Part shown: positions 4,790-29,228 of the stretch, piece after piece
Position numbering within the stretch: the first letter of the stretch is position 1
Layout: each line of letters begins with the position of its first letter
Source of the DNA: Copranaerobaculum intestinale
GTDB taxonomy: Bacteria; Bacillota_I; Bacilli_A; Erysipelotrichales; Erysipelotrichaceae
NCBI RefSeq assembly: GCF_009831105.1
Contig: NZ_WUUQ01000002.1
Coordinates: forward strand, 240,001-272,000
Length of the DNA: 32,000 bases
Direction of reading: 5' to 3'
The notes under the pieces: generated by a model
Databases searched by the model: none
Told to the model about the DNA's origin: nothing
The model's input: only the letters and a program-made list of their open reading frames with translations
Translations under genes and position numbers: made by a program

Positions 4790-6871
4790 TTATGGTTCTG
4801 CATTATGTTCGTGCAGGTAAGCTTGCAGATCGGTGAAGGAAAGAGCCTTGCTGTAAAGCCAGCCCTGATAGATATGGCATCCCATATCTGCTAGCTGCTG
4901 CTGTTGACTTTGATCCTCTACATATTCTGCGACTACATCGAAGTGCAATGATTGTGAAAGCTGCATGATCGATTCAATGATCTTAGCAGAGCGCTTGCTG
5001 TCACGAAGCTGTTTAATCAAGGAGCCATCCAGCTTGACACAGTCAAACTGATTATTCAGTAAGTACATCATGGAACTATGTCCCATGCCGAAATCATCCA
5101 TAATAATCCGTACGCCGAGTTTGCGAAGTCTCATGATCTGCGCGATATTTTTCTGCGTGATTTCCATAGCTGCTTGTTCGGTCAATTCCAAGCCGATCAT
5201 CGAGCTGTTGATTCCGGTCTGGTCGATTTCTTGCTGTATTTTTGATATCAGCTTAGGGTTAACCAATTGTTCTGCCGTTAAATTCAAAGAAAGTATGAAA
5301 TGCTGATAACCCTGATCCTGGAGAATTTTTAAATCGCAAAATACCTGATGGATCAATAGATCCCGCAGCAGCTCCAGATACCCGTTTTCTTTTAGCAGGG
5401 CGATGACCAGCGGCGGATACAAATAACCGATGGATTCCACAAAGCATCGAAGCAATGCTTCTGCACCTAATGCTTTTCCCTTCTGGTTAACCTGAGGCTG
5501 ATAATGAATGTTGATTTCTCCTTTATGCAGTTGATGTACGATTTCACCTAACAGAAAACGCGCCATTTCACCGGCTTCTCCTTCCAGCTGCATAAGCTTC
5601 GGTGAAGTGCCGTCTTCTTCATGCAGAATTACCAATTCTTCTAATTTTTTAACCTGCATTTTCTTAGTTTGATTGATCCTTCGCATATTGAAGCGTACAA
5701 ACGGCAGATAAATGAGCATACCGACGATTAGATTGACAAGCTGTAAAATGCTTCCGGAAATTGAGCCGGTCGCCGCATATCCGCTGATAAAAATCGGTGA
5801 AGTCCATTCCACTCCATGAATCGGAATGGGGACAATATGGAAAAACATTGCTCCATAGCTAATGACGGTTAAAACGATAGGGGTCAGAATAAACGGAACC
5901 AAATAAACAGGATTTAAGACGATTGGAATACCGAAAATCAGCAATTCATTCATATTAAAGACAGCCGGCAAGGTTGAAAAACCGACAAACCGTTTGAATA
6001 CCTTGCGTTTATCCGCAATCATGATCGCGGCAATCAAACACAGTAAGGCACCGCATCCGCCGAATAATACAAAGGTATCGAGAAAGGTCTTGGACATGAT
6101 CTGTCCTGATTGCAGGGCAAAATAATTTCTTGCCACATTATCAAGAACATTCCCCCCATGAATACCGAAGAACCACATGAGATGAAGCAGAAAGATAAAG
6201 ATCACACCGCTGAACAACGTAGTTCCCAAGGCAGTGAAGATAGTAAGCATAGCATCACTGATCAGTGACTGCAAATCATTGATGCCAAACGCGCTCATCA
6301 GCAGATGCAGAAAACTGAACAATAAGAGTATGACCGCTATGGGGATAATGGCATACATGGCATGGAAGAAGGTACTTTCATTCGCTGATTGATGCTTGAA
6401 AACTTTTTGCATCCACAAATTTAAAGTATGATACAGCATGGATGATACACATACAACCAATAATGCGTTAAACAACATCGTACTTTGGAACAATGTAAAG
6501 TCAAAGCTTTTGGCAGCGTTCCAACAAAAAATCAGGTAGGCACTTAGATTGACAAACACAAGCATGCCGCCTGTATTGAGTTTTAAATATTTCTCAAAAC
6601 TGATACTGATGGTAATGAGCAGAATCAGCGTGATAACATCTAAGGTACAGCCATGTATGATCGTCAACAGCTCGAGATAAGGCTTCCAGCCGGCAGAATG
6701 TAACAGAGTCTGGTATCCGGGAATCGGCAGACTTAAAAGCAGCAGTGCCGTCGATCCGCATAAGATAGCCGGAATGGCCAAGGCAACACCGTTTTGGATT
6801 GCCCGAATGATTACATTTTGTTCGATCTTTTGAAATGTTTTGCGCAGAAAAACGGTCATTGTCTCATTCAC
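4790..6871 (-). CDS. PTS EIIC (lactose/cellobiose family) membrane domain fused to a C-terminal EAL c-di-GMP phosphodiesterase domain
   Basis: Residues ~1-395 are polytopic and carry the EIIC signature NELLIFGIPIVLNPVYLVPFILTPIV. Residues ~445-690 carry EALLR (471-475), ELTE, DDFGMGHSS, KLDGSLI, AEYVE and QGWLYSKA, which is the full EAL catalytic set. Confidence 0.85.
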   Translation of the reverse strand: MNETMTVFLRKTFQKIEQNVIIRAIQNGVALAIPAILCGSTALLLLSLPIPGYQTLLHSAGWKPYLELLTIIHGCTLDVITLILLITISISFEKYLKLNTGGMLVFVNLSAYLIFCWNAAKSFDFTLFQSTMLFNALLVVCVSSMLYHTLNLWMQKVFKHQSANESTFFHAMYAIIPIAVILLLFSFLHLLMSAFGINDLQSLISDAMLTIFTALGTTLFSGVIFIFLLHLMWFFGIHGGNVLDNVARNYFALQSGQIMSKTFLDTFVLFGGCGALLCLIAAIMIADKRKVFKRFVGFSTLPAVFNMNELLIFGIPIVLNPVYLVPFILTPIVLTVISYGAMFFHIVPIPIHGVEWTSPIFISGYAATGSISGSILQLVNLIVGMLIYLPFVRFNMRRINQTKKMQVKKLEELVILHEEDGTSPKLMQLEGEAGEMARFLLGEIVHQLHKGEINIHYQPQVNQKGKALGAEALLRCFVESIGYLYPPLVIALLKENGYLELLRDLLIHQVFCDLKILQDQGYQHFILSLNLTAEQLVNPKLISKIQQEIDQTGINSSMIGLELTEQAAMEITQKNIAQIMRLRKLGVRIIMDDFGMGHSSMMYLLNNQFDCVKLDGSLIKQLRDSKRSAKIIESIMQLSQSLHFDVVAEYVEDQSQQQQLADMGCHIYQGWLYSKALSFTDLQAYLHEHNAEP

Positions 6872-14036: not shown

Positions 14037-15533
14037 ATGTATCATATTTCTGATATTAAAAAATTCGAACGGTGTGAAAAATATTTTTGGCTTTATACTC
14101 ACCAGCCAGTAAAGTATTCACCTTTCGTGTATCATAATGAGAATATGACAGAGCTTTGTAAAAAGCTGCTTTCGATTAATGAACCGTATTTTGAAGGACA
14201 AGCCAATGATGAAGGAGAAAAAGCATTACAAGCAATTTCAGAGTATTCCTGCCTTGTAAATGCCCGTTTTGTATATCAGGATTTGCGTATTAAGATACCG
14301 TTTTTGATAAAACAGGATGACCACAGCTTCGACGTTTATTTTACTTATACCAGTTGTTATCCAAAAGAAGGGGAAGCGCAGTCAATCGCCGACCATATGT
14401 ATGTGTTAAAACAGCTGCAAATACCGGTTCATCATATTTATGCGATTCATTTGAATGCGCAATATGTTCGTCAGGGGGACTTGGACGTTCATGAACTGCT
14501 GATAATCGATACCTATTTATTCAATCATAAAAATAAAGCGCATCAGAAAATTGAAGAATTAGTTGATACTTGTTCACGAAATCTGGATGAGGTGCTTGTG
14601 AGAATGCGTGAAGTTCAACAGGTTGAACATGTTGAAAGCAAGCGGACAACAATGTGCACAAGAGGATTAAAATGTCCTTATTTTGAAAAGTGCTTTGAAA
14701 CTCCAAGTCCCACCTCTGTATTGAATCTGGTACAGTCCGCTGGAAAGCTGGAAATGCAGGAAGCAGGTATTCAGGATATGCGTGATGTCGATCTAGCCAA
14801 GTTAGAAGGTACACGTCATCAGTATGCGCAGATCATGGCCGCGAAATGTTTCGACGGTATTTACTTTGATACCTTTGCTATGTATTCGTGGGTGCATGAC
14901 AATATTCAATATCCAATTTCCTATTTGGATTTTGAATGGGAAACATATGTTTATCCGCCTTACGACGGCATGAAGCCTTATGATGTGCTGACCTTTCAAT
15001 ATTCATTGCACATAGAAAAGGAACATGGTGCTGAGCTGGAGCATAAACAGTTTTTAGGTAAGCAGGACTGCCGTGAAGCATTCATACAGCATTTGCTTGC
15101 AAACATTCCGGAAACCGGCACAATTATGGTATTCAATATGGAAGGTGCAGAGAAGCTGCGCCTCATGCAGCTTAGCGAGCAGTTCCCACAGTATCGTGAA
15201 CAGTTAGTAGCGGTATGCGATCGCATGATCGATCTATCTTTGCCATTCAGTACCGGCAATGTCTATCTAAAAGAGATGGCGGGGATGTACTCACTGAAAA
15301 AATTGGTTACGATTTTCAGTGATTATCGTTATAGCGATCTGGATATTTCATATGGTATGGATGCCGTAAAAAACTGGCGTATGCTGGCACATAGCGATGA
15401 TGAGCAAAGTAAGGAAATAGAGCAGCATCTGTTTGAATATTGTGCGATGGATACATATGCAATGGTGCTTGTCTATCACGGTATCTTAGATCTATTAAAT
15501 GAAAAAAGTAAGAATTTATATTCATCATCTTAG
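14037..15533 (+). CDS. DUF2779-family protein (Cas4/RecB-like Cys-cluster N-domain plus DEDD/RNase H-like C-domain)
   Basis: The N-terminus ISDIKKFERCEKYFWL and the block YLDFEWETYVYPPYDGMKPYDVLTFQYSLH match the DUF2779 signature (LDFET...P...PyqqiPFQ.S.H). Cysteines at C13, C207, C213 and C219 are arranged like an Fe-S nuclease cluster. Confidence 0.7.
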   Translation: MYHISDIKKFERCEKYFWLYTHQPVKYSPFVYHNENMTELCKKLLSINEPYFEGQANDEGEKALQAISEYSCLVNARFVYQDLRIKIPFLIKQDDHSFDVYFTYTSCYPKEGEAQSIADHMYVLKQLQIPVHHIYAIHLNAQYVRQGDLDVHELLIIDTYLFNHKNKAHQKIEELVDTCSRNLDEVLVRMREVQQVEHVESKRTTMCTRGLKCPYFEKCFETPSPTSVLNLVQSAGKLEMQEAGIQDMRDVDLAKLEGTRHQYAQIMAAKCFDGIYFDTFAMYSWVHDNIQYPISYLDFEWETYVYPPYDGMKPYDVLTFQYSLHIEKEHGAELEHKQFLGKQDCREAFIQHLLANIPETGTIMVFNMEGAEKLRLMQLSEQFPQYREQLVAVCDRMIDLSLPFSTGNVYLKEMAGMYSLKKLVTIFSDYRYSDLDISYGMDAVKNWRMLAHSDDEQSKEIEQHLFEYCAMDTYAMVLVYHGILDLLNEKSKNLYSSS

Positions 15534-15793
15534 TTATATTTTGCAATTTTTTACTGTAAAATCGTATGGTGAAAATACACATAAAAAGGAATATTTGAAA
15601 ATTTTTCCTATATATAAAAAATAGAAAAATCCCGTTATGAAAGATGATTGCACCTGCCTCATGGGTTGTTTATAATGATGGCAGGGAAAGGAAGAAACTG
15701 ATAAAACAAAATGGTGGGGGCCGAAACAGTTGATACGGTATACTTCTGAGGGAGATTTAAAGAAGCGAAAGAACTGTGATTTTTCTGTTTCAA

Positions 15794-15822
15794 ACGCCAT
15801 GTCCACCATGGTGCTTTTTTTA
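15794..15822 (+). terminator. Intrinsic terminator-like hairpin inside the leader of the 94-aa ORF
   Basis: cgCCATG-tccac-CATGGtg stem (7 bp including one G-U pair) followed by a T7 run. It ends 15 nt upstream of the ATG at 15838. Confidence 0.55.
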
Positions 15823-15837
15823 TCAGCGGGTGAAATT

Positions 15838-16122
15838 ATGCGTATTGAGAATGATGAAAGATTGCGTAAAATGTATGCCGATATTTATCAGGAAATTATC
15901 AATATTACCGGGTATCATCACAAAGATGATTTAGAGCTTTTAGATCGATGGCTGGAAGATAATAATATTGTGGACGTATATTTACAGATATTACAAATTT
16001 ACACGTCAGATATTAGACTGACGCCTCAGGAACGTGATTTGCTATTGCAGTATCGTACAATGAATGAGCGCAGCAGGGCAAAATTAAGAAAGTCATTAAC
16101 ATTGCTAACAAGCACAAAGTAA
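15838..16122 (+). CDS. Hypothetical 94-aa helical protein, first gene of the regulator cluster
   Basis: The ATG at 15838 is preferred because the track start (15730) would read through the terminator hairpin. A GGGTGA RBS precedes it. I recognise no family. The C-terminal LTPQERDLLLQYRTMNERSRAKL resembles tails seen on small XRE-type proteins. Confidence 0.5.
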   Translation: MRIENDERLRKMYADIYQEIINITGYHHKDDLELLDRWLEDNNIVDVYLQILQIYTSDIRLTPQERDLLLQYRTMNERSRAKLRKSLTLLTSTK

Positions 16123-16130
16123 TAAACTAT

Positions 16131-16159
16131 TTTACAGAAAATTTCTTATTTGTTACAAT
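16131..16159 (+). promoter_or_regulatory. Promoter of regulator 1
   Basis: TTTACA (16131-16136), a 17-nt spacer ending in TG-T, then TACAAT (16154-16159). It lies 24 nt upstream of the ATG at 16183. Confidence 0.6.
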
Positions 16160-16182
16160 AGACCTGTAAAGGGGTTTGACGG

Positions 16183-17499
16183 ATGGAGACGATTATAAAC
16201 TCATCTTATTTAATAACAATCGGAACGCTGATCGGTTATGAAAGAAAGATGAAATGCAAGGAATTGGCTGGTACCAAGGAAAAGGAAGCATATAAACAAA
16301 TACCTTTTTGTGAAGGGATTTGTTGCGTGCAGACATATCGTAATATTGAAAAAGCTACTCTTGAAGTGAAAACTCCAATCTATGAGAAATTACTTCATAA
16401 GCTTGGCTATGAAATGATTTATGATGATGATCTTTATAAGGAGATAAATTATAGATTGCAGAATTTGAATGATGCAATAGAGAAATATGATTTGGAATCA
16501 GTATTTATTATTGTTGATAAATTGAATAATTTATTGAAAAATTCGGAAAAAGATATTTATCAGAAATATTTAATTCAAGTAATTGATGTCATATATCAAT
16601 ATTATAAAATCAATGAGTTCCCGGATTTAATAAATGTTGAAATGATGAAATCTGTATATGCAGGCTTTCCTTCATATATAAAAAGCGTCATGATTGATAT
16701 ATTATATAAATATGCCGTATTGAATATTATTGATGATAATGAATATGTTAAATATGTAAAAGAAATCAATTTAAAAACAAGTAAATATGTGCCTAATCAA
16801 ATAAATTATTTACAATTTTTATGTAATATTCAAGATTTTGATAAATTCTATCTTATTTTTGAAGAAGTATTGAAAGACTTAAAAAAGAAGCGATTGTTTT
16901 TAAGAATGCTTGATATTTATGATTTAAAAATCATAGCTGATCTTAATACTGATCCAACAAGAATAGTAAAAGACATAGATGAATGTAATATAAATGTAGA
17001 TCGTGTTATGAATAAATTAAGTTTTCATGAGGATGAAGAAGTCACTTCTAAAACCATAAAAACAAAGCTATCGCAGCATTATTATAATATTGGTTATTCA
17101 TTGATGATTGCAAGGCAGTATAATGAAGCAAAAGATGCATTTGAAAAATCTTTGAATTATGATGATATCTTTGAATTAGCATGTAAAGTGTTTTTATTTA
17201 ATTGCTATGATAGATTAGGATTTGATTGTGTTGAGTATAGGAATTATATTAATCTGAGCAGAACTTATGATACAAGTAATAAACATTATGTTTTATTCTT
17301 ATATTATGTTTTCAAACTTGAGAATAATAATTTGAGGGAAAGGTTAAAGTACATTAAAAAATATGTGTTGAATTATATTCTTCCAGAAGATACATTGCTC
17401 ATAAGAATTTTATTTTTCGAAATTAATAATTTGGCGAAGGCAACTTCTAATTATCAAGTTCTCCAAGAATTTATTGAAAAAATGGGTTTAATTAACTAA
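16183..17499 (+). CDS. RRNPP-like (NprR/PlcR/AimR-type) regulator 1: degenerate XRE HTH plus TPR-like helical repeats
   Basis: The N-terminus IGTLIGYERK...FCEGICCVQTYRNIEKA...IYEKLLHKLGY follows the XRE HTH pattern. The rest is all-helical with TPR-like units (YYNIGYSLMIARQYNEAKDAFEKSL). At 438 aa it is close to NprR in size. A secreted pro-peptide gene lies immediately downstream. Confidence 0.6.
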   Translation: METIINSSYLITIGTLIGYERKMKCKELAGTKEKEAYKQIPFCEGICCVQTYRNIEKATLEVKTPIYEKLLHKLGYEMIYDDDLYKEINYRLQNLNDAIEKYDLESVFIIVDKLNNLLKNSEKDIYQKYLIQVIDVIYQYYKINEFPDLINVEMMKSVYAGFPSYIKSVMIDILYKYAVLNIIDDNEYVKYVKEINLKTSKYVPNQINYLQFLCNIQDFDKFYLIFEEVLKDLKKKRLFLRMLDIYDLKIIADLNTDPTRIVKDIDECNINVDRVMNKLSFHEDEEVTSKTIKTKLSQHYYNIGYSLMIARQYNEAKDAFEKSLNYDDIFELACKVFLFNCYDRLGFDCVEYRNYINLSRTYDTSNKHYVLFLYYVFKLENNNLRERLKYIKKYVLNYILPEDTLLIRILFFEINNLAKATSNYQVLQEFIEKMGLIN

Positions 17500-17566
17500 T
17501 AAATTACCCATTTTTTTATTTTTGTTTAAATTCTGCTAAAAGCAGGATTATGGGTATTTCGGTGCA

Positions 17567-17595
17567 TAGATAAAATATTTCATGGCCTTTATGAT
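17567..17595 (+). promoter_or_regulatory. Candidate activator-dependent promoter of pro-peptide 1
   Basis: A weak -35 TAGATA, a 17-nt spacer, then TATGAT inside the 9-mer CTTTATGAT. That 9-mer recurs upstream of pro-peptide 2. Confidence 0.4.
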
Positions 17596-17629
17596 GTTTC
17601 TGTAAAGAGAAAAGGAGGGTCATTAGACC

Positions 17630-17779
17630 ATGAAAAAATTAATTGTTGGATTTTCAGTTGTGGCTGTTTTGGCAGGATGTTTTATAGTGAATAATTCAGA
17701 AAATAATGAAATATCTACTAAAACAAGTGATAGAAGTGGTGGATTAATTGCTGATAGAAGTGGTGGATTAATTGCTTAA
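17630..17779 (+). CDS. Secreted pro-peptide 1 (49 aa): MKKLIVGFSVVAVLAGCFIVNNSENNEISTKTSDRSGGLIADRSGGLIA
   Basis: This ORF is not in the supplied track; I translated it by hand. An AAAGGAGGG RBS sits 10 nt upstream. The peptide has an MKK start, a hydrophobic signal sequence with an LAGC lipobox, and a duplicated C-terminal octapeptide. A terminator lies downstream at 17892. Confidence 0.6.
   Translation: MKKLIVGFSVVAVLAGCFIVNNSENNEISTKTSDRSGGLIADRSGGLIA
17729..17776 (+). repeat. Perfect 24-bp tandem duplication (GATAGAAGTGGTGGATTAATTGCT x2) encoding DRSGGLIA twice
   Basis: 17729-17752 is identical to 17753-17776, and the stop codon follows directly. Confidence 0.95.
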
Positions 17780-17891
17780 TTATCGTTGATTGCGTAGAAG
17801 GTATCTCAAATCTCACATACGCGGGTGGAACCCATGTTCACATCTACATATAGCTGGGGAGCTAAACTTACAATCGAACATGGTGAAAAGC

Positions 17892-17918
17892 AGGACTTAG
17901 GGAGAGTCCTCTTTTTTT
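17892..17918 (+). terminator. Rho-independent terminator ending cassette 1
   Basis: AGGACT-tagggag-AGTCCT hairpin followed by C and a T7 run. Confidence 0.7.
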
Positions 17919-18044
17919 ATATTTGGACTTTTTCGCCGATTTTTGCAGACAAGGGACAAAATCATGAAAGACTGCATGTCCGACTGCTATACGCAGACAA
18001 AGTGATTATGTTAAAATAAACAAAATGGGAAAGAGGGAGTTTGA

Positions 18045-19346
18045 ATGATAGAGAATACGGATTATTTCCTCGCAGTAGGTGCTTTAATTGAGTGTGAACG
18101 TATTCGTCAGAAGAAACTGGCATCGGATCACAAGCCCTTCAATCAAGAATCTTTCTGCGAGCATATTTGTGATACCAAAACATATCGGCGCATGAGTGTT
18201 GAGAAAAGGGAAATCAATCATCGCTTCTATGGTCAGTTGCTACAGCGGTTGGGACTTCAAATGGCCTACGACGATGAACTTTATAAAAAGCTGCATGTAC
18301 GTTTGGCCAATTTAAACGATGCCATAACCAAATATAATTTACATGACATCGAGGAAATCTACGGGAAAATAGAAAATCTTATCGGGGACTGTCACCCGGA
18401 TATTTACTTTCAATATATCCGCTGGATCACAACCCTGCTTACCAATTATTATTTACATAATCAGTTTCCAAGTCTGGAGGAAATGCAGGTGCTCTTACAA
18501 ATATGTATGGGATTTCCTAGGGATGTACGCGATATGATGATGGATTTGATTTTTAAATACTATCGGCTTCATACCACATCCAATCAGGATTATTTTTCAT
18601 ATATTAAAAAATTTCCGTATGAATCCAGCACCTTTCTTCCAAATCGAATAAATTATATACAGTCTATTCATGACCGAGATGACTTTGATCAATTTACCGC
18701 GCTGTCGAATGAATTGATACCTATACTGGAAAGTACCCGTAATTATTTTCGTCTGATTGATGTTTATGACTTACAGATTACGGCAATGTATTATACCGAC
18801 CGTATTCATGTTGAGGATGTCATAACAAAAGCGGATAATAATGTGACTTCCTTATTTGAAAAATATAAATACAAAGCAGATATGCCAATCAAAAAGATTG
18901 AATGGCCATTAAAGCGTAAAATATCACAATATACATATCATAAGGGATGCATTTTATTTTTACTGAAAAATTATGAGCAGGCTATCCATATCCTGAGTGA
19001 ATATCTGTTGAATAATCAAATGATGGAGGTTCACAGCAAGGTGATGCTAATAAGCTGTTATCATCATCTTCATCAAAAAATTCCTTCCGCTTATCTGGAA
19101 TTGCATCACCATACAGATGATCAGAAATTTTTGAATATGCACACGTATTTTCAAATGAAGTATCTTCATGATGAACAATTGATTACGCTAAACAACTACT
19201 TGGAATATGAGGTCTTACCGCTGGTAATGCCGGAAGATGATGTACTGATCCGGGTTCTCACGTATGAGTTAAGTTTAAATGCGAAGAATAACCGCGGCTA
19301 TGTATTATTTCATCATTTCTTTGAAAAACTAGGCATGACGCAATGA
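18045..19346 (+). CDS. RRNPP-like regulator 2 (paralog of regulator 1)
   Basis: Aligns with regulator 1 over its full length. Matching blocks include YFLAVGALIECER / YLITIGTLIGYER, FCEHIC..TYR / FCEGIC..TYR, LGLQMAYDDELYKKLHVRLANLNDAITKYNL / LGYEMIYDDDLYKEINYRLQNLNDAIEKYDL, MPEDDVLIRVL / LPEDTLLIRIL and FFEKLGM / FIEKMGL. A GAGGGAG RBS precedes the start. Confidence 0.6.
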   Translation: MIENTDYFLAVGALIECERIRQKKLASDHKPFNQESFCEHICDTKTYRRMSVEKREINHRFYGQLLQRLGLQMAYDDELYKKLHVRLANLNDAITKYNLHDIEEIYGKIENLIGDCHPDIYFQYIRWITTLLTNYYLHNQFPSLEEMQVLLQICMGFPRDVRDMMMDLIFKYYRLHTTSNQDYFSYIKKFPYESSTFLPNRINYIQSIHDRDDFDQFTALSNELIPILESTRNYFRLIDVYDLQITAMYYTDRIHVEDVITKADNNVTSLFEKYKYKADMPIKKIEWPLKRKISQYTYHKGCILFLLKNYEQAIHILSEYLLNNQMMEVHSKVMLISCYHHLHQKIPSAYLELHHHTDDQKFLNMHTYFQMKYLHDEQLITLNNYLEYEVLPLVMPEDDVLIRVLTYELSLNAKNNRGYVLFHHFFEKLGMTQ

Positions 19347-19412
19347 AAATTCCCTAATTTATGAGAATGTTAGGATTTTTTACCGGTTCTGTATTTTAGG
19401 TATTTTACCGTC

Positions 19413-19441
19413 TGGAGACCGTCTTTTCCTTTCTTTATGAT
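19413..19441 (+). promoter_or_regulatory. Candidate activator-dependent promoter of pro-peptide 2
   Basis: A weak -35 TGGAGA, a 17-nt spacer, then TATGAT within CTTTATGAT. The geometry is the same as upstream of pro-peptide 1. Confidence 0.4.
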
Positions 19442-19466
19442 AGAGATGGAAAGGAGGAGACATATT

Positions 19467-19592
19467 ATGAAAAAGTTGTTGATAAGTGTCTTTGCGGTAC
19501 TGCTTGCCGGTGGTCTGTTGAGTGGGGAAGCTTTACAGCCAAAGCAGGAACAGAAGGTTATGGTGGATCGTTCGATTTCTGTAATTTTCTAA
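19467..19592 (+). CDS. Secreted pro-peptide 2 (41 aa): MKKLLISVFAVLLAGGLLSGEALQPKQEQKVMVDRSISVIF
   Basis: This ORF is not in the supplied track; I translated it by hand. An AAAGGAGGAG RBS sits 6-7 nt upstream. The peptide has an MKK start and a hydrophobic signal peptide. Its C-terminal DRSISVIF parallels DRSGGLIA of pro-peptide 1. Confidence 0.6.
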   Translation: MKKLLISVFAVLLAGGLLSGEALQPKQEQKVMVDRSISVIF

Positions 19593-19692
19593 ATACATTC
19601 GCCTCAGGTGAAGAAAAGAGGGTGATATGCCTTCTTTTTCTATTTGAAACTGGGCGTTTATACCTGACGAATCTGGGTAGGTAACATAGGTT

Positions 19693-21780
19693 ATGTCAGG
19701 GGGTGATAGTATCGCTACAGGATATTTACAGGTACAAACCTTCATCGCCGATCAGGCTATGCCAATTGCCAATGTAACCATTCGTGTATATAAAGTTAAT
19801 AATAACGAGGTTGTGTTTGAAGATTATTTCATGACTGATCAGGAGGGAAGTACCGAAATTATTGCGCTATATGCACCGGATCGCGATCTTTCTTTAGAGG
19901 AAAGCAATGATTATCGGCCATATGAACAATATAATGTAGAAGCTCGAATCATTGGATTTGAATCAGAAGAGCGCATCGGTGTACAAATTTTTGCGGGGGA
20001 GCGCTCTGAATTGTTTTTTTCGCTTGTTCCCACTCGCATCAGAACCTCTACCGAACGTAATGTCAATACCATAGAAGACCACCATCTGCTGACGAACTAT
20101 GGGGGAAATAATACCGGACAATCGATCCGTGATAATTTCAATGAAGGTGATGTGCAGCCGTTTGTATTAGATCAGGTAATCATTCCCAGAAAGATTACCG
20201 TTCATTTGGGGAGACCGACTGCCAGCGCTGAAAATGTTACAGTGGACTTTATTTATTATATTAAGAATGTTTGCAGCTCTGAAATTTATCCGACGTGGCC
20301 GTATGAGGCGCTTCGGGCGAATATCTGGGCACAGATTTCACTTGCATTGAACCGGATTTATACGGAGTGGTATCGAAGCAAAGGATATAACTTTGATATA
20401 ACCAATAGTACAGCATATGATCAGGCATTTGTGAAGAACCGTAATATTTATGATACAGTGTCCGTTATTGTTGATGACGTATTCAACCAATATATTCAGA
20501 AATCAAATTTCCATGAACCATTTTATGCAGAATATTGTGACGGCAAGATTGCGACATGTCCTGGCATGAAGCAATGGGGTACGCTGGATCTGGCCAACCG
20601 CGGTTATGATTCACTGCAAATTTTAAAATACTATTATGGGGATAATATTAAGATCGTGGAGTCTAACAATATTCAGGATGTTTCCGGATCATATCCGGGC
20701 ACACCGCTGCGTTTAGGCAGCAGTGGACAGGAAGTCTTTATGATTCAGGAATTTTTGAATGCGATTGCAGTTAATTATCCGAATATCAAACCGATTTATC
20801 CGGTAGACGGTAATTTTGGACAGTCTACAGAAGATGCGGTGAAAGTATTCCAGCGGCAGTTTAATCTTACTCCGGATGGCATTGTCGGCAAAAATACATG
20901 GTATAAGATATCCTTTATCTATGTGGCAGTGCGCAAGCTTGCTGAATTAACGAGTCTTGGCCGTGAGGAAGATGCATTCAGCGGTGAATGGCCAGGAGTT
21001 GTGCTACGTATCGGTGATAAGGGTGTGAATGTACAGCAAGTGCAGTTCTATCTGTCTTCGATCGCACAGTTCTATCCGCAGATTCCCGATGTAACGATTG
21101 ACAGCCGTTTCGGTACACAGCTGGAACGTTCAGTTCTGGCTTTCCAGAAGGCCTTCAATCTGATTCAGGATGGTATCGTAGGGCAGGGTACATGGAACCG
21201 TATTTTTGAGGTATTCTCAACTTTAGAATCAACAGTGACACCGCCTTGGACACCGCCTCCGTATCCTGGTTTTACAATTTCTGAAGGTGCGTCCGGAAGT
21301 AATGTAGAGGCCTTGCAGGGAGCACTGAATCTGGTATCTCAGCAGTACACAAATCTGCCGGTCATTGTCGCAGACGGCTATTTCGGTCCGTCTACTACCA
21401 ATTCTGTAAAGGATTTCCAGCGTACTTTTGGACTGACTGTGGATGGCATTGTCGGACAGGAGACATGGAATAAGATATTCAAGACAGCTCTGGAAGTGGA
21501 TCAGGGGGATCTTCCTTCGCAGGGACTGCCGCCGTTTCCGGGAACCGTTTTACGCGTTGGTTCTACCGGCAACGATGTCCAGCTGATGCAGACAAGGCTA
21601 AAAACGATAGCGATTTATTATAAAACCATACCGGATATTACCGCTGATGGAATTTTTGGCAGCTCAACTCGCAATGCGGTCATTGCGTTTCAGCGGCTGA
21701 TGGGACTGGAAGCAGACGGAGTTATCGGGCAGCAGACTTGGTATCAGATAAATAAGGTATTCGAGGAATTGACAACCTAG
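19693..21780 (+). CDS. Peptidoglycan-binding protein: CarboxypepD_reg-like N-domain, SpoIID/LytB-like central region, 4x PG_binding_1
   Basis: GYLQVQTF...IANVTIRVYK...TDQEGST resembles a carboxypeptidase-regulatory fold. YIKNVCSSEIYPTWPYEALRANIWAQISLALNRI resembles the SpoIID signature. Four ~75-aa repeats carry the G..V..LQ..L....DG.FG..T..AV..FQ....L..DG.VG..TW pattern. There is no N-terminal signal peptide. The start codon is uncertain. Confidence 0.75.
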   Translation: MSGGDSIATGYLQVQTFIADQAMPIANVTIRVYKVNNNEVVFEDYFMTDQEGSTEIIALYAPDRDLSLEESNDYRPYEQYNVEARIIGFESEERIGVQIFAGERSELFFSLVPTRIRTSTERNVNTIEDHHLLTNYGGNNTGQSIRDNFNEGDVQPFVLDQVIIPRKITVHLGRPTASAENVTVDFIYYIKNVCSSEIYPTWPYEALRANIWAQISLALNRIYTEWYRSKGYNFDITNSTAYDQAFVKNRNIYDTVSVIVDDVFNQYIQKSNFHEPFYAEYCDGKIATCPGMKQWGTLDLANRGYDSLQILKYYYGDNIKIVESNNIQDVSGSYPGTPLRLGSSGQEVFMIQEFLNAIAVNYPNIKPIYPVDGNFGQSTEDAVKVFQRQFNLTPDGIVGKNTWYKISFIYVAVRKLAELTSLGREEDAFSGEWPGVVLRIGDKGVNVQQVQFYLSSIAQFYPQIPDVTIDSRFGTQLERSVLAFQKAFNLIQDGIVGQGTWNRIFEVFSTLESTVTPPWTPPPYPGFTISEGASGSNVEALQGALNLVSQQYTNLPVIVADGYFGPSTTNSVKDFQRTFGLTVDGIVGQETWNKIFKTALEVDQGDLPSQGLPPFPGTVLRVGSTGNDVQLMQTRLKTIAIYYKTIPDITADGIFGSSTRNAVIAFQRLMGLEADGVIGQQTWYQINKVFEELTT
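20692..21762 (+). repeat. Four tandem PG_binding_1 domain-encoding repeats within the CDS
   Basis: Repeat units start near 20692, 20990, 21262 and 21535 (YPGTPLRLG, WPGVVLRIG, YPGFTISEG, FPGTVLRVG). They are diverged at the DNA level. Confidence 0.8.
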
Positions 21781-26872: not shown

Positions 26873-26906
26873 CTGACAAATTATGAGCAGCTTATTCGCC
26901 TATACT
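26873..26906 (+). promoter_or_regulatory. Candidate spoIIG-type promoter with 22-bp spacer
   Basis: CTGACA (26873-26878), a 22-nt spacer, then TATACT (26901-26906). Spo0A-box-like TTCGNNN elements lie at 26803-26809 and 26895-26901. The predicted leader is very short. Confidence 0.35.
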
Positions 26907-26927
26907 TGTCCTCACAGGAGGCGGGGC

Positions 26928-27665
26928 ATGAGCAGTTATATCGAGGTTACGTTCATCAATAATGTTTTCATTATGATGCTTTCACTGGTTCTGGCACATT
27001 ACCTGCTGCTTGACCGCATGAGCCGCAGAACGATGTTACACTATACATTCGCTATTTCCTTGTTGGCAGTGCTGTGCTGGAGCTCCTTTTCCCCCTTGCT
27101 GATGCTGGGAGCGGAAATCCTGTCCTGTATTTTCTGGTTCAAGCTGCATATAAAAGTGTTTGCCTTAGCTTATAGTCTGCGGCTGCTTTTTTCCTTGACC
27201 TGCTATGTTCTGTATGGCGGAAGCTTTCATCTGCTGATCTATTTTGTTCCAATCGGTACCTACGCAATCTTGTACTTTTGGGTGATTGCCGGCATTGCCC
27301 TGATCGCATGCTTGCGAAAATGGAAATATTATATTACCCAGGCCCAGTATATCTACGAAACTGAGCTTTATACAAAGCAGAAAAAATTTCATATTTATGG
27401 CTACCTGGACAGTGGAAATGTGCTCACATATCATGAAATTCCTATTATATTCGCGGTTTCCAGATTTTATGAATATTTCAAAAATGAGAACATAGAATTA
27501 GTAGTAATGAATACTATGAATCAAACCAGCTCGATACGGGTCTATCCGTGTGAGCTGCAGGTAAGAGGCTGTGAGAAACAGCCTGCATATATTTGCTTTG
27601 ATCGTCAGGGCATCATTCCGATGCACTGCGAATGTCTGTTGAATCTCCATGTATTGACGAGGTGA
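26928..27665 (+). CDS. spoIIGA: Sigma-E processing peptidase SpoIIGA
   Basis: Five-TM N-terminal half followed by the aspartic protease motif GYLDSGNVL, positioned directly upstream of sigE. An AGGAGG RBS sits 6 nt upstream of the ATG at 26928. The track start is 26883. Confidence 0.85.
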
Positions 27666-27670
27666 AGAAG

Positions 27671-28372
27671 ATGAACATATGGAAAAGACTTTGGGCATTT
27701 TTATTTCGGTATCGTGATCATCAGGAAGTACTTTATATTCAGGGAAATGATGTGCTGCCTCAGCCGCTGTCGAAGGATGAGGAGCTGGCAGCGCTGATTG
27801 CACTGGAGGATGGAGATGAGGAAGCACGCAACACCTTGATTGAACATAATCTGCGGTTAGTTGTATATATTGCCAAGCGTTATGAAACCAATCCGATCTT
27901 TATGGAGGATTTGATCAGTATCGGCAGTATCGGTTTGATCAAGGCGGTAAATACGTTTAAACGGGATAAGAATATCAAGCTGGTGACCTATGCTTCCCGC
28001 TGTATCGAAAATGAGATTCTCATGTATCTAAGAAAAAAGAGCCGTCGCAAGGTAGAAGTATCCTTTGACGAACCGCTGAATGTTGATTATGACGGCAATG
28101 AACTACTGCTGAGCGATATTTTGGGAACCGATGATGACGTAGTCACAAAGGAATTTGAACGTAATGAGAACAAGCGAGAGCTGTTAGATGCCATGAAGTG
28201 TCTCAAGGAACGAGAACGTCAGATCCTGCAGATGCGCTATGGCATCGAGCATGAGGAATTGACCCAGAAAGATATTGCATCGCGCTTAGGCATCTCCCAG
28301 TCATATATCTCCCGACTGGAAAAGCGTATTATCCATAAATTAAAAAACCAGATGAAACAAAACAACGGGTAG
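27671..28372 (+). CDS. sigE: RNA polymerase sporulation sigma factor E (pro-sigma-E)
   Basis: Near-identical blocks to B. subtilis SigE: [78 protein letters not shown] and [25 protein letters not shown] precedes the ATG at 27671. Confidence 0.95.
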
Positions 28373-28401
28373 CCTGACAGGAATTACCAGTTGTTTTTTT
28401 T
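28361..28401 (+). terminator. Imperfect terminator between sigE and sigG
   Basis: AACAAC-GGTA...TACC-GTTGTT bulged stem followed by a T8 run. Confidence 0.5.
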
Positions 28402-28451
28402 ATAAACAAACGGCTCACGGGAAGACTGCTAGTATCGCTAGGAGGAATATC

Positions 28452-29228
28452 ATGAGTCGTTACAAAGTGGAAATCAGCGGGGTCAATACCGCTGCTTTGA
28501 AGGTACTTACGAATAAGGAGATGAAAGAGCTGTTTGTGAGACTTCAAAACGGGGAAAAAGAGGCGAAAGATATTCTGATTGAGGGTAATTTGAAACTGGT
28601 ATTATCAATCGTACAGCGTTTTTCATCCCGCTGTGAAAATATGGATGATCTGTTTCAAGTCGGCTGCATCGGACTGGTAAAGTCCATTGACAATTTTGAT
28701 TTGAAACATGAAGTGCGGTTTTCCACCTATGCCGTTCCGATGATCATGGGGGAGATCAAGCGATATTTAAGAGACAATCAGGTGATTCGCGTAAGCCGGC
28801 ATTTAAAAGATCTGGCATATAAGGCATTTAAGCTGAAAGAGGAGTATATCCATGAGCATCAGCATGAGCCTTCTACGGCTTATTTAGCTGCCCAGCTGGA
28901 GGTAAAGGAAAAGGATATTGTAGATGCTTTGGATTCCGTACAGAGTGTAATCTCAATCTTTGAACCGGTCTATAACAGTGATGGCGATGAATTGTATCTC
29001 ATGGATCAGATTCGTGATGACAAGGATGAAATTGCACTGCTGGAAAATGTACTGGCTTTAAAAAACAGTATGAAGGCACTGAATCCCAAAGAAATGGATA
29101 TCATCAAAAAGCGCTACTATGATGATATGACCCAGACCGAGATTGCCAGTGAACTGGGAATTTCGCAGGCGCAGGTGAGCCGGCTGGAGAAAAGCGCGAT
29201 CGCCGTTTTAAAGAAAAACTTTAATTAA
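28452..29228 (+). CDS. sigG: RNA polymerase sporulation sigma factor G
   Basis: Contains MSRYKVEISGVNT, DDLFQVGCIGLVKSIDNFD, FSTYAVPMIMGEIKRYLRDN..IRVSR and ISQAQVSRLEK, which closely parallel B. subtilis SigG. Confidence 0.95.
   Translation: MSRYKVEISGVNTAALKVLTNKEMKELFVRLQNGEKEAKDILIEGNLKLVLSIVQRFSSRCENMDDLFQVGCIGLVKSIDNFDLKHEVRFSTYAVPMIMGEIKRYLRDNQVIRVSRHLKDLAYKAFKLKEEYIHEHQHEPSTAYLAAQLEVKEKDIVDALDSVQSVISIFEPVYNSDGDELYLMDQIRDDKDEIALLENVLALKNSMKALNPKEMDIIKKRYYDDMTQTEIASELGISQAQVSRLEKSAIAVLKKNFN

Follow-up and report, generated by a model that had tools for sequence, protein, structure and literature searches.

We propose that the small open reading frame (ORF) at positions 17630-17779 of a 32,000-nucleotide stretch of DNA (the window) from Copranaerobaculum intestinale DONG20-135, a human-gut bacterium of the family Erysipelotrichaceae, encodes the secreted precursor of a peptide signal. 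Sequence comparison and structure prediction together make it likely that its product, pro-peptide 1 (pp1), and the receptor encoded directly upstream, R1, form a signalling pair resembling those of the RRNPP family, and to that extent they support the original prediction, which had read the ORF as the pro-peptide of an RRNPP-like receptor. Among strains of one species, it is only the repeat domain of R1 and the peptide gene that co-diverge.

The pp1 gene (17630-17779; this gene, the two receptor genes, pro-peptide gene 2 and the elements described around them are all on the forward strand) encodes a protein of 49 amino acids, MKKLIVGFSVVAVLAGCFIVNNSENNEISTKTSDRSGGLIADRSGGLIA, that begins with MKKLIVGFSVVAVLAGC and ends with DRSGGLIADRSGGLIA and is labelled 'lipoprotein' in RefSeq (WP_160624941.1). 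By lipobox pattern rules, the signal peptide MKKLIVGFSVVAVLAG and Cys17 (17630-17680) come first. They are followed by a variable polar linker, FIVNNSENNEISTKTS (17681-17728), which is the least conserved part of pp1 among alleles, and by two DRSGGLIA units (17729-17752 and 17753-17776), right after which lies the TAA stop codon (17777-17779). Both units read GATAGAAGTGGTGGATTAATTGCT at the DNA level, so the last 16 residues are indeed, as had been noted, two octapeptides encoded by identical 24-bp units. The array is the top tandem repeat of the window in Tandem Repeats Finder (score 98, period 24, 2.0 copies, 100% match), and a search for the unit with up to 3 mismatches found only these two sites, with 0.00 expected from 100 shuffles; it is therefore not a product of chance. 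It is no assembly accident either, because the records show the exact 49-residue protein on 21 contigs and, on 5 more, an N22S variant. Exact look-ups of hypothetical one-copy and three-copy versions of this allele found none. A one-copy version of the allele of locus L001 (see below) exists, but its 501-bp contig may result from a collapsed assembly. A Shine-Dalgarno sequence, AGGAGG (17613-17618), lies 11 nt ahead of the pp1 ATG, and the string aaaaggagggtc is conserved 5' of every orthologous first pro-peptide gene. Further upstream are a promoter-like site (TAGATA-17-TATGAT, 17567-17595) and a terminator-like hairpin (AAATGGGT / ACCCATTT, 17480-17513, with its T-run 17480-17525), an inverted repeat that spans the R1 stop codon; both are matches at the level of the consensus.

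Syntenic contigs (L001-L009 and L014, metagenome) were recovered via receptor and peptide homologs. In L001, L003, and L006, all flanking genes are 99-100% identical to those of the window, as are the genes of a second receptor-peptide pair, R2 and pro-peptide 2 (pp2), downstream of pp1. In 50-nt bins against these three loci, identity falls from 98-100% to 50-80% at about position 16500, and levels of 98-100% are regained near 17800. A gene-by-gene comparison is in agreement, with a nucleotide identity of 50-78% for the divergent part. The variable block corresponds exactly to R1 residues ~106-438 plus pp1. R1 residues 1 to ~105, a constant and probably helix-turn-helix (HTH)-type effector domain, are 93-99% identical among alleles, and residues ~106-438, the hypervariable domain that is predicted to be TPR-like and to bind the peptide, are only 46-66% identical. 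Identity of the repeat domain also tracks the likeness of the peptide units, as it reaches 66% both between the window and L001, which share GGLIA, and between L005 and L009, which share DRSGTVIS. Since the R1 repeat domain and pp1 alone diverge between near-identical flanks, we regard positions 16500-17790 as a strain-variable pherotype cassette.

The alleles of pp1 differ in the number as well as the kind of their C-terminal units, and the one to three copies that had been anticipated are borne out. The window carries DRSGGLIA twice, L001 carries GDRNGGLIA three times, and the allele of L006 and P0129 (14 contigs) carries GDRWGGLIA twice; single units are found in L002 (GDRNGVVIA), P0134 (GDRNGLVIC), L003 (DRSGVHIC), and L005, L007, and L009 ((G)DRSGTVIS). 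Units are also combined. L014 (366-509) ends in the heterotypic pair GDRSGGLIA-DRSGVHIC, which joins the unit of the window to that of L003, and the pairs GDRNGGLIA-GDRNGVVIA and GDRNGGVIA-GDRWGGLII occur as well. The receptor fragment of L014 is that of L004 (76/76 residues), and the L004 repeat domain is 82-85% identical to that of L003. L003 itself (5461-5592) reads TNE----LIA-DRSGVHIC, with a relic first unit that has suffered a 4-codon deletion and substitutions. Because alleles carry one, two, or three units, mixed pairs, and a decayed relic, the (G)DRxGxxIx unit of 8-9 residues is, judged from these sequences, a functional module that is duplicated, shuffled, kept, or lost; this copy-number series supports the claim that the C-terminal octapeptide is the functional unit.

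Comparison of the units at the DNA level points to selection on the peptide. The two units of L006 differ at 7 of 27 nt, all synonymously (P ~1e-5), and the DRSGGLIA units of the window and of L014 differ at 6 of 24 nt, again all synonymously, in cassettes only ~50% identical as protein. By this comparison the units are under purifying selection as peptides; the window's own pair, having no differences, gives no information on this point. As homologous units in other alleles have accumulated synonymous differences and those of the window have none, the latter reflect a recent duplication (or recent homogenisation). The original prediction had offered selection on the DNA as the other explanation for their identity, and this finds no support. 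By analogy with Rap-Phr systems, the perfect repeat of the window suggests the young, homotypic first stage of duplication-dependent divergence, the path to new specificities of signal and receptor. The homotypic window, the heterotypic L014, and the replaced unit of L003 parallel the logic of the RR, KR, and KK forms of RapK2, a series shown experimentally and explained by a transient-duplication model (PMC5199041).

The receptor R1 (16183-17499; 438 amino acids) has an all-helical AF2 model (pLDDT 87, pTM 0.83). In Foldseek searches against the PDB, the top matches of this model are Rap phi3T, NprR, PlcR, RapJ, AimR, and Rap phi105, with TM-scores of up to 0.56 (query-normalised) and 0.68 (target-normalised). 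According to the model, R1 is a cytoplasmic all-helical repeat protein with a fold nearest to those of Rap, NprR, PlcR, and AimR. An exhaustive profile search for relatives gave ~109 clusters of proteins of 410-440 amino acids; 18 of the 60 members scanned had TPR matches and 6 had HTH_3 matches, which were weak (E >= 1e-3). The family consensus TQxxFxxxICSxxTLxxIExG resembles an XRE HTH. In every locus a pro-peptide gene with a ribosome-binding site (RBS) and an n-h signal peptide lies 95-170 nt downstream of the receptor, and a small secreted peptide gene is found downstream also in the distant receptor relatives L008, L011, and L013. A receptor relative of 38% identity, L010, has no recognisable pro-peptide downstream (L010:4299-4525) and is a possible orphan receptor. 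Three of the features that mark an RRNPP system, namely a TPR-like receptor domain, an adjacent gene for an exported pro-peptide, and co-evolution of receptor and peptide, can therefore be recognised here. Two receptor alignments found no relative among GTDB representative genomes, a set in which the source genome is apparently masked or absent; IMG/VR viral contigs held no receptor relatives, and one short contig, L007, was matched in JGI metagenomes.

These data can be combined in a model of how the signal might be made. The precursor would be exported by Sec and processed at the lipobox or close to it, probably by Lgt and Lsp, which would leave a lipid-tethered tail of 32 residues. Extracellular or surface proteases would then cut after a hydrophobic-Ala pair (...[VI]A|(G)DR...). 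The junction between the two units would recreate this cut site, since each unit ends in ...IA, and two DRSGGLIA peptides could be released from each translation product, which would double the signal dose. Finally, the peptide would be re-imported and bind the R1 repeat domain, altering the activity of the constant, probably HTH, N-terminal domain; no opp genes lie in the 32-kb window. The proposed cut site recurs among the alleles. Apart from that of the window, 13 pp1-type alleles were compared, and 12 of them have [VIY]A just before their first unit (NPVA|GDR, NTVA|DR, ELIA|DR, and others), the exceptions being L014 (...KAV|GDR) and the window itself (KTS|DRS), and pp1-type units end in IA, IS, IC, or II. 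The junction LIA|DRS between the window units is identical to the context that precedes the single unit of L003; the second unit of the window thus has the usual context of units in other alleles. Judged from these contexts, the window precursor would yield at least one DRSGGLIA peptide and probably two. Both copies of the duplicated Phr propeptides of phi3T and phi105 are produced and active (PMC11343458).

The first cut of this model depends on the lipobox. LAGC (codons 14-17, 17669-17680) places Cys17 after MKK and an uncharged core, and it is a canonical lipobox as claimed, because it satisfies both the G+LPPv2 pattern and a PROSITE PS51257-type rule (Cys at position 15-35, K or R in the first 7 residues, and six uncharged residues before the Cys). 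All Cys-bearing pp1-type alleles tested meet both patterns. The residues A15, G16, and C17 are kept in 13 of 14 pp1-type genes, in cassettes with only 42-57% identity outside the signal part, and a Cys is also present in distant homologs, namely the L008 peptide (MGAC) and the pp2 of the more distant species represented by L009 (LTGC). In the window allele, no type I-like (-3,-1) site lies downstream of the Cys. On balance these sequences lead us to favour, with modest confidence, the use of the Lgt/Lsp route by pp1. Such a route had been called unusual for an RRNPP-type signal. It is less so than was thought, since 211 of 2,734 RRNPPA propeptides (7.7%) are predicted to be Sec/signal peptidase II substrates (PMC9765709).

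Several points weigh against reading R1 and pp1 as a signalling pair with a lipid-tethered precursor. The Foldseek E-values are only ~3e-3, and eukaryotic or generic TPR proteins rank close behind the RRNPP receptors. R1 fits no curated RRNPP subfamily model in Pfam or NCBIfam, where nothing beyond single TPR repeats is matched (in Pfam, one weak TPR repeat), and neither a single-sequence nor a profile search against PDB sequences gave a match; by sequence, it belongs to none of the Rap, NprR, PlcR, PrgX, Rgg/ComR, and AimR families. When the N-terminal 110 residues were modelled alone, the pLDDT was 62 and no significant fold match was found, and DNA binding by R1 is for that reason putative. 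Release of the first window unit may be inefficient or use another cut, because it is preceded by ...KTS and not by ...[VI]A, and the mature peptide may carry or omit a G or T at its N terminus. As for the lipobox, Cys17 is replaced by Gly in the pp2 of the clade (LAGG) and by Val in gene 3 of the L005 locus (MAGV), and the residues after the Cys, which are hydrophobic in all alleles (CFIV, CLFA, CLLA, and others), also fit an extended type I signal peptide. Typical lipoproteins do not have such hydrophobic residues after the Cys.

These last points raise the possibility that the lipobox is unused, Cys17 being simply part of a long hydrophobic core (LIVGFSVVAVLAGCFIV). The precursor would then be a substrate of type I signal peptidase or an uncleaved signal anchor, like Phr, AimP, and PapR, and the rest of the model would be unchanged. 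A type I-like (-3,-1) site is present at position 20 in 8 of the 14 pp1-type alleles (LFA|G in L002, L005_1, L007, L009, and P0134; LLA or LLS in L005_3, L005_5, and L006), and pp2, in which the lipobox position reads LAGG, has a good type I site (GEA|L) and is perfectly conserved. However, this does not account for the retention of the AGC triplet across divergent cassettes or for the Cys of the distant homologs, and both RefSeq and the standard pattern rules call pp1 a lipoprotein. We therefore consider an unused lipobox possible, if on balance doubtful. The picture of Cys conservation is mixed, since the residue is present in most pp1-type genes and missing from the pp2 of the clade and from L005 gene 3. 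With the Cys lost from the paralog, lipidation is not essential, and the Lgt/Lsp route is, from these sequences, clearly dispensable for at least the pp2 signal. Lipidation of pp1 is plausible but neither proven nor indispensable.

A stronger version of the tethering idea is that pp1 is a true lipoprotein, in which a diacylglyceryl-Cys holds a concatemer of units at the cell surface from which surface proteases clip them one at a time, and that some strains also encode units of other pherotypes in order to talk to or jam rival strains of their own gut species. Units of other pherotypes do occur: L014 carries the DRSGGLIA of the window, and an array of pro-peptide genes at L005 carries the units of L001 and L002 and a near-match to that of L006. 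We regard this scenario as unlikely on the present sequences. If true, release would be protease-gated, the signal would initially be cell-associated, and the number of copies would serve to tune the dose; no C-terminal pheromone of the RRNPP type is known to mature in this way.

It could also be argued that the two units stay joined and act as one 16-mer, or as a longer tail, whose specificity is unlike that of single-unit alleles, as the original prediction had suggested for the alternative case. The units of the window abut without a spacer, and the first one lacks the usual upstream ...[VI]A, both of which would fit such a peptide. The allele series makes this improbable. Units occur singly in L002, L003, L005, L009, and P0134, in triplicate in L001, and in mixed pairs; the first can decay while the last is retained; and the ...LIA|DRS junction is the very context in which the L003 unit stands alone. 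Moreover, known RRNPP ligands have 5-10 residues (PMC11343458).

Still less can be said for a route of the enterococcal or Listeria type, in which the signal would be a peptide cleaved from the lipoprotein signal sequence (SVVAVLAG, for example) and the C-terminal tail would be irrelevant. The lipobox of pp1 is in keeping with such a route, and PrgX-type pheromones and Listeria pPplA do derive from lipoprotein signal peptides. However, the signal-peptide region is near-constant, with residues 9-16 reading ALIAVMAG in L003, L005_1, L005_3, and L005_4 in spite of different receptors or units. The specificity that resides within the signal sequence of cCF10-type signals is not seen here; it is the C-terminal units that co-vary with the R1 binding domain as the latter falls to 46-66% identity, and duplication and purifying selection concern the tail. 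We consider this route very improbable. Equally improbable is that the ORF is a small lipoprotein or non-functional and takes no part in signalling, its repeat being neutral replication slippage: very recent slippage would give identical units, and the annotation says only 'lipoprotein' or 'hypothetical', but every locus conserves the gene together with its RBS and position, pp1 co-diverges with the R1 repeat domain, older duplicates have been kept identical as protein, and the two-copy allele is recorded on 26 contigs and its one-copy form on none. A reading of pp1 as the precursor of a ribosomally synthesized and post-translationally modified peptide was dropped, as no modifying enzyme adjoins the gene in any close locus.

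Additional pro-peptide genes are found at some loci. L005 has five in tandem after R1 (L005:3951-4647), only two of which were detected by the gene caller. Their products end in DRSGTVIS, TDRNGTVIS, TDRNGIVIS, GDRNGGLIA-GDRNGVVIA, and GDRNGGVIA-GDRWGGLII, and genes 4 and 5 each encode two different units. The units of L001 and L002 are present exactly, and that of L006 as a one-residue variant (GDRWGGLII instead of GDRWGGLIA). Expression of genes 2-4 is uncertain, because they have no RBS of their own; each abuts the preceding stop codon. At L007, a second pro-peptide gene follows pp1 (L007:1212-1340) and is frameshifted relative to its ...GDRNGVVIA end; it is a decaying extra copy.

The second pair in the window, R2 and pp2 (18045-19592), is frozen beside the hypervariable R1 and pp1. 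R2 (18045-19346; 433 amino acids) is a paralog with 32% identity to R1, and its gene is 81-100% conserved in nucleotide sequence among loci. The pp2 gene (19467-19592) encodes 41 amino acids, MKKLLISVFAVLLAGGLLSGEALQPKQEQKVMVDRSISVIF, without a Cys and ending in ...VMVDRSISVIF, and all loci share the same DRSISVIF tail. For pp2 the longest ORF begins at 19437; a conserved RBS and RefSeq favour the start at 19467.

Between the two pairs, directly after the pp1 stop codon, lies a conserved non-coding block (17786-17925) with a terminator-like hairpin (17892-17910) and a T-run at its end. It may belong to the pp1 transcript as its 3' end or represent a small RNA of its own. The block is strongly conserved even in L009, whose R2 is only 51% identical, and has a folding z-score of -2.1 with no covariation or compensatory changes; positions 15000-20000, scanned against Rfam at E <= 1, yielded no match. 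Given the moderate fold and the lack of compensatory changes, we make no RNA claim. Its position recalls that of aimX after aimP, and the 61-residue ORF that gene callers place in it is probably spurious. Operator-like palindromes were sought in the intergenic regions, and only weak A/T-rich matches and terminator stems were found.

Upstream of R1, a small conserved ORF (15640-16122) without a family match has its probable start at the ATG at 15839, which would give a product of ~94 amino acids, and its leader contains a terminator-like hairpin (15795-15813) with a T-run. The DUF2779 gene, the small ORF, and the receptor gene follow one another in this order even in L010. On the other side, a gene for a 695-residue protein that combines a SpoIID-like region with four PG_binding_1 domains (19693-21780) follows pp2 in all syntenic loci, and the L010 receptor is also neighboured by a PG-binding protein. 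It is possible that the gene at 19693-21780 is a regulatory target; the non-coding block at 17786-17925 and the small ORF at 15839-16122 are further candidate targets of R1. Sporulation genes (SpoIIGA, sigE, and sigG) are present at 26883-29228, and the window as a whole is ordinary chromosome, with MurB, FeoB, SpoIIGA-sigE-sigG, SepF, and DivIVA. On the reverse strand, the 693-residue ORF at 4790-6871 unusually joins a PTS EIIC domain to an EAL (c-di-GMP phosphodiesterase) domain at its C-terminal end.

R1 and pp1 share much with the Rap-Phr systems. In both, a small Sec-exported precursor is encoded right after a TPR receptor (PMC11343458; PMC5199041), the mature peptide is C-terminal with an Arg at position 2, internal copies are identical (two ERPVGT in phi105) or diverged, homotypic, heterotypic, and replaced forms make up a series in which receptor and peptide co-diverge, and some loci have extra propeptide genes. 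Unlike the Rap proteins, R1 is not a Rap by sequence, has 438 residues, and shows an XRE-HTH-like N-terminal motif where Rap has a 3-helix bundle. The pp1 units, of 8-9 residues, abut directly, whereas the copies in phi105 Phr are separated by a 4-residue spacer; the pp1 lipobox is conserved; the locus is chromosomal and found in Erysipelotrichaceae instead of Bacillus; and L005 has up to five propeptide genes, compared with two reported for Rap. R1 is probably the same as NprR (423 amino acids) and PlcR in size and architecture (HTH plus TPR), and NprR is among its best fold matches. NprR-NprX and PlcR-PapR likewise have a C-terminal mature peptide, of 7-8 residues, with strain-level pherotypes, and repeats have been reported in NprX and PapR (PMC9765709). 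They differ in that R1 has no sequence-level membership and a putative HTH, and pp1 has a DRxGxxIx motif and a signal peptide of the signal peptidase II type.

Other systems resemble R1-pp1 in part. The agr (agrB-D-C) and comQXP cassettes also have sharp borders, with a variable signal gene and recognition part and a constant output domain, but their machinery is unrelated, with membrane histidine kinases and modified peptides where R1-pp1 has a linear peptide and a receptor of the cytoplasmic TPR type. The enterococcal pheromones cCF10 and cAD1 and Listeria pPplA share with pp1 a lipoprotein-type signal sequence, and PrgX belongs to RRNPP; their signal is the cleaved signal peptide, whereas the variable, duplicated, and selected part of pp1 is the C-terminal tail. 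Propeptides with up to six identical copies are known from AimR, NprR, PlcR, and Rap systems, and extra neighbouring propeptide genes are known in RRNPPA systems as well (PMC9765709). Multi-copy propeptides and those of the Sec/signal peptidase II type are thus already known for RRNPPA, and the variation of copy number and dialect among strains is familiar from Bacillus; R1-pp1 adds a further example, from an uncharacterised receptor family of a gut Erysipelotrichaceae. In the collection of papers searched, we found none that joins RRNPP with Erysipelotrichia and nothing on signalling in C. intestinale.

What is understood of RRNPP-type quorum sensing comes almost wholly from Bacillus, Streptococcus, and Enterococcus and from their phages, and the locus described here independently supports the model of duplication-dependent divergence outside Bacillus. 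Its added value lies in an unusually complete natural series of pherotype evolution together with a conserved predicted lipobox. Homotypic, heterotypic, and decayed duplicates can be read as successive steps of a change in specificity, with a frozen paralogous system next door. As the lipobox is kept in pp1 and there is none in pp2, the locus also offers a clean system in which to ask whether processing of the signal peptidase II type matters to peptide signals. A single chromosomal site in one species harbours at least six dialects of signal and receptor, which makes the locus a natural experiment in a human-gut commensal.

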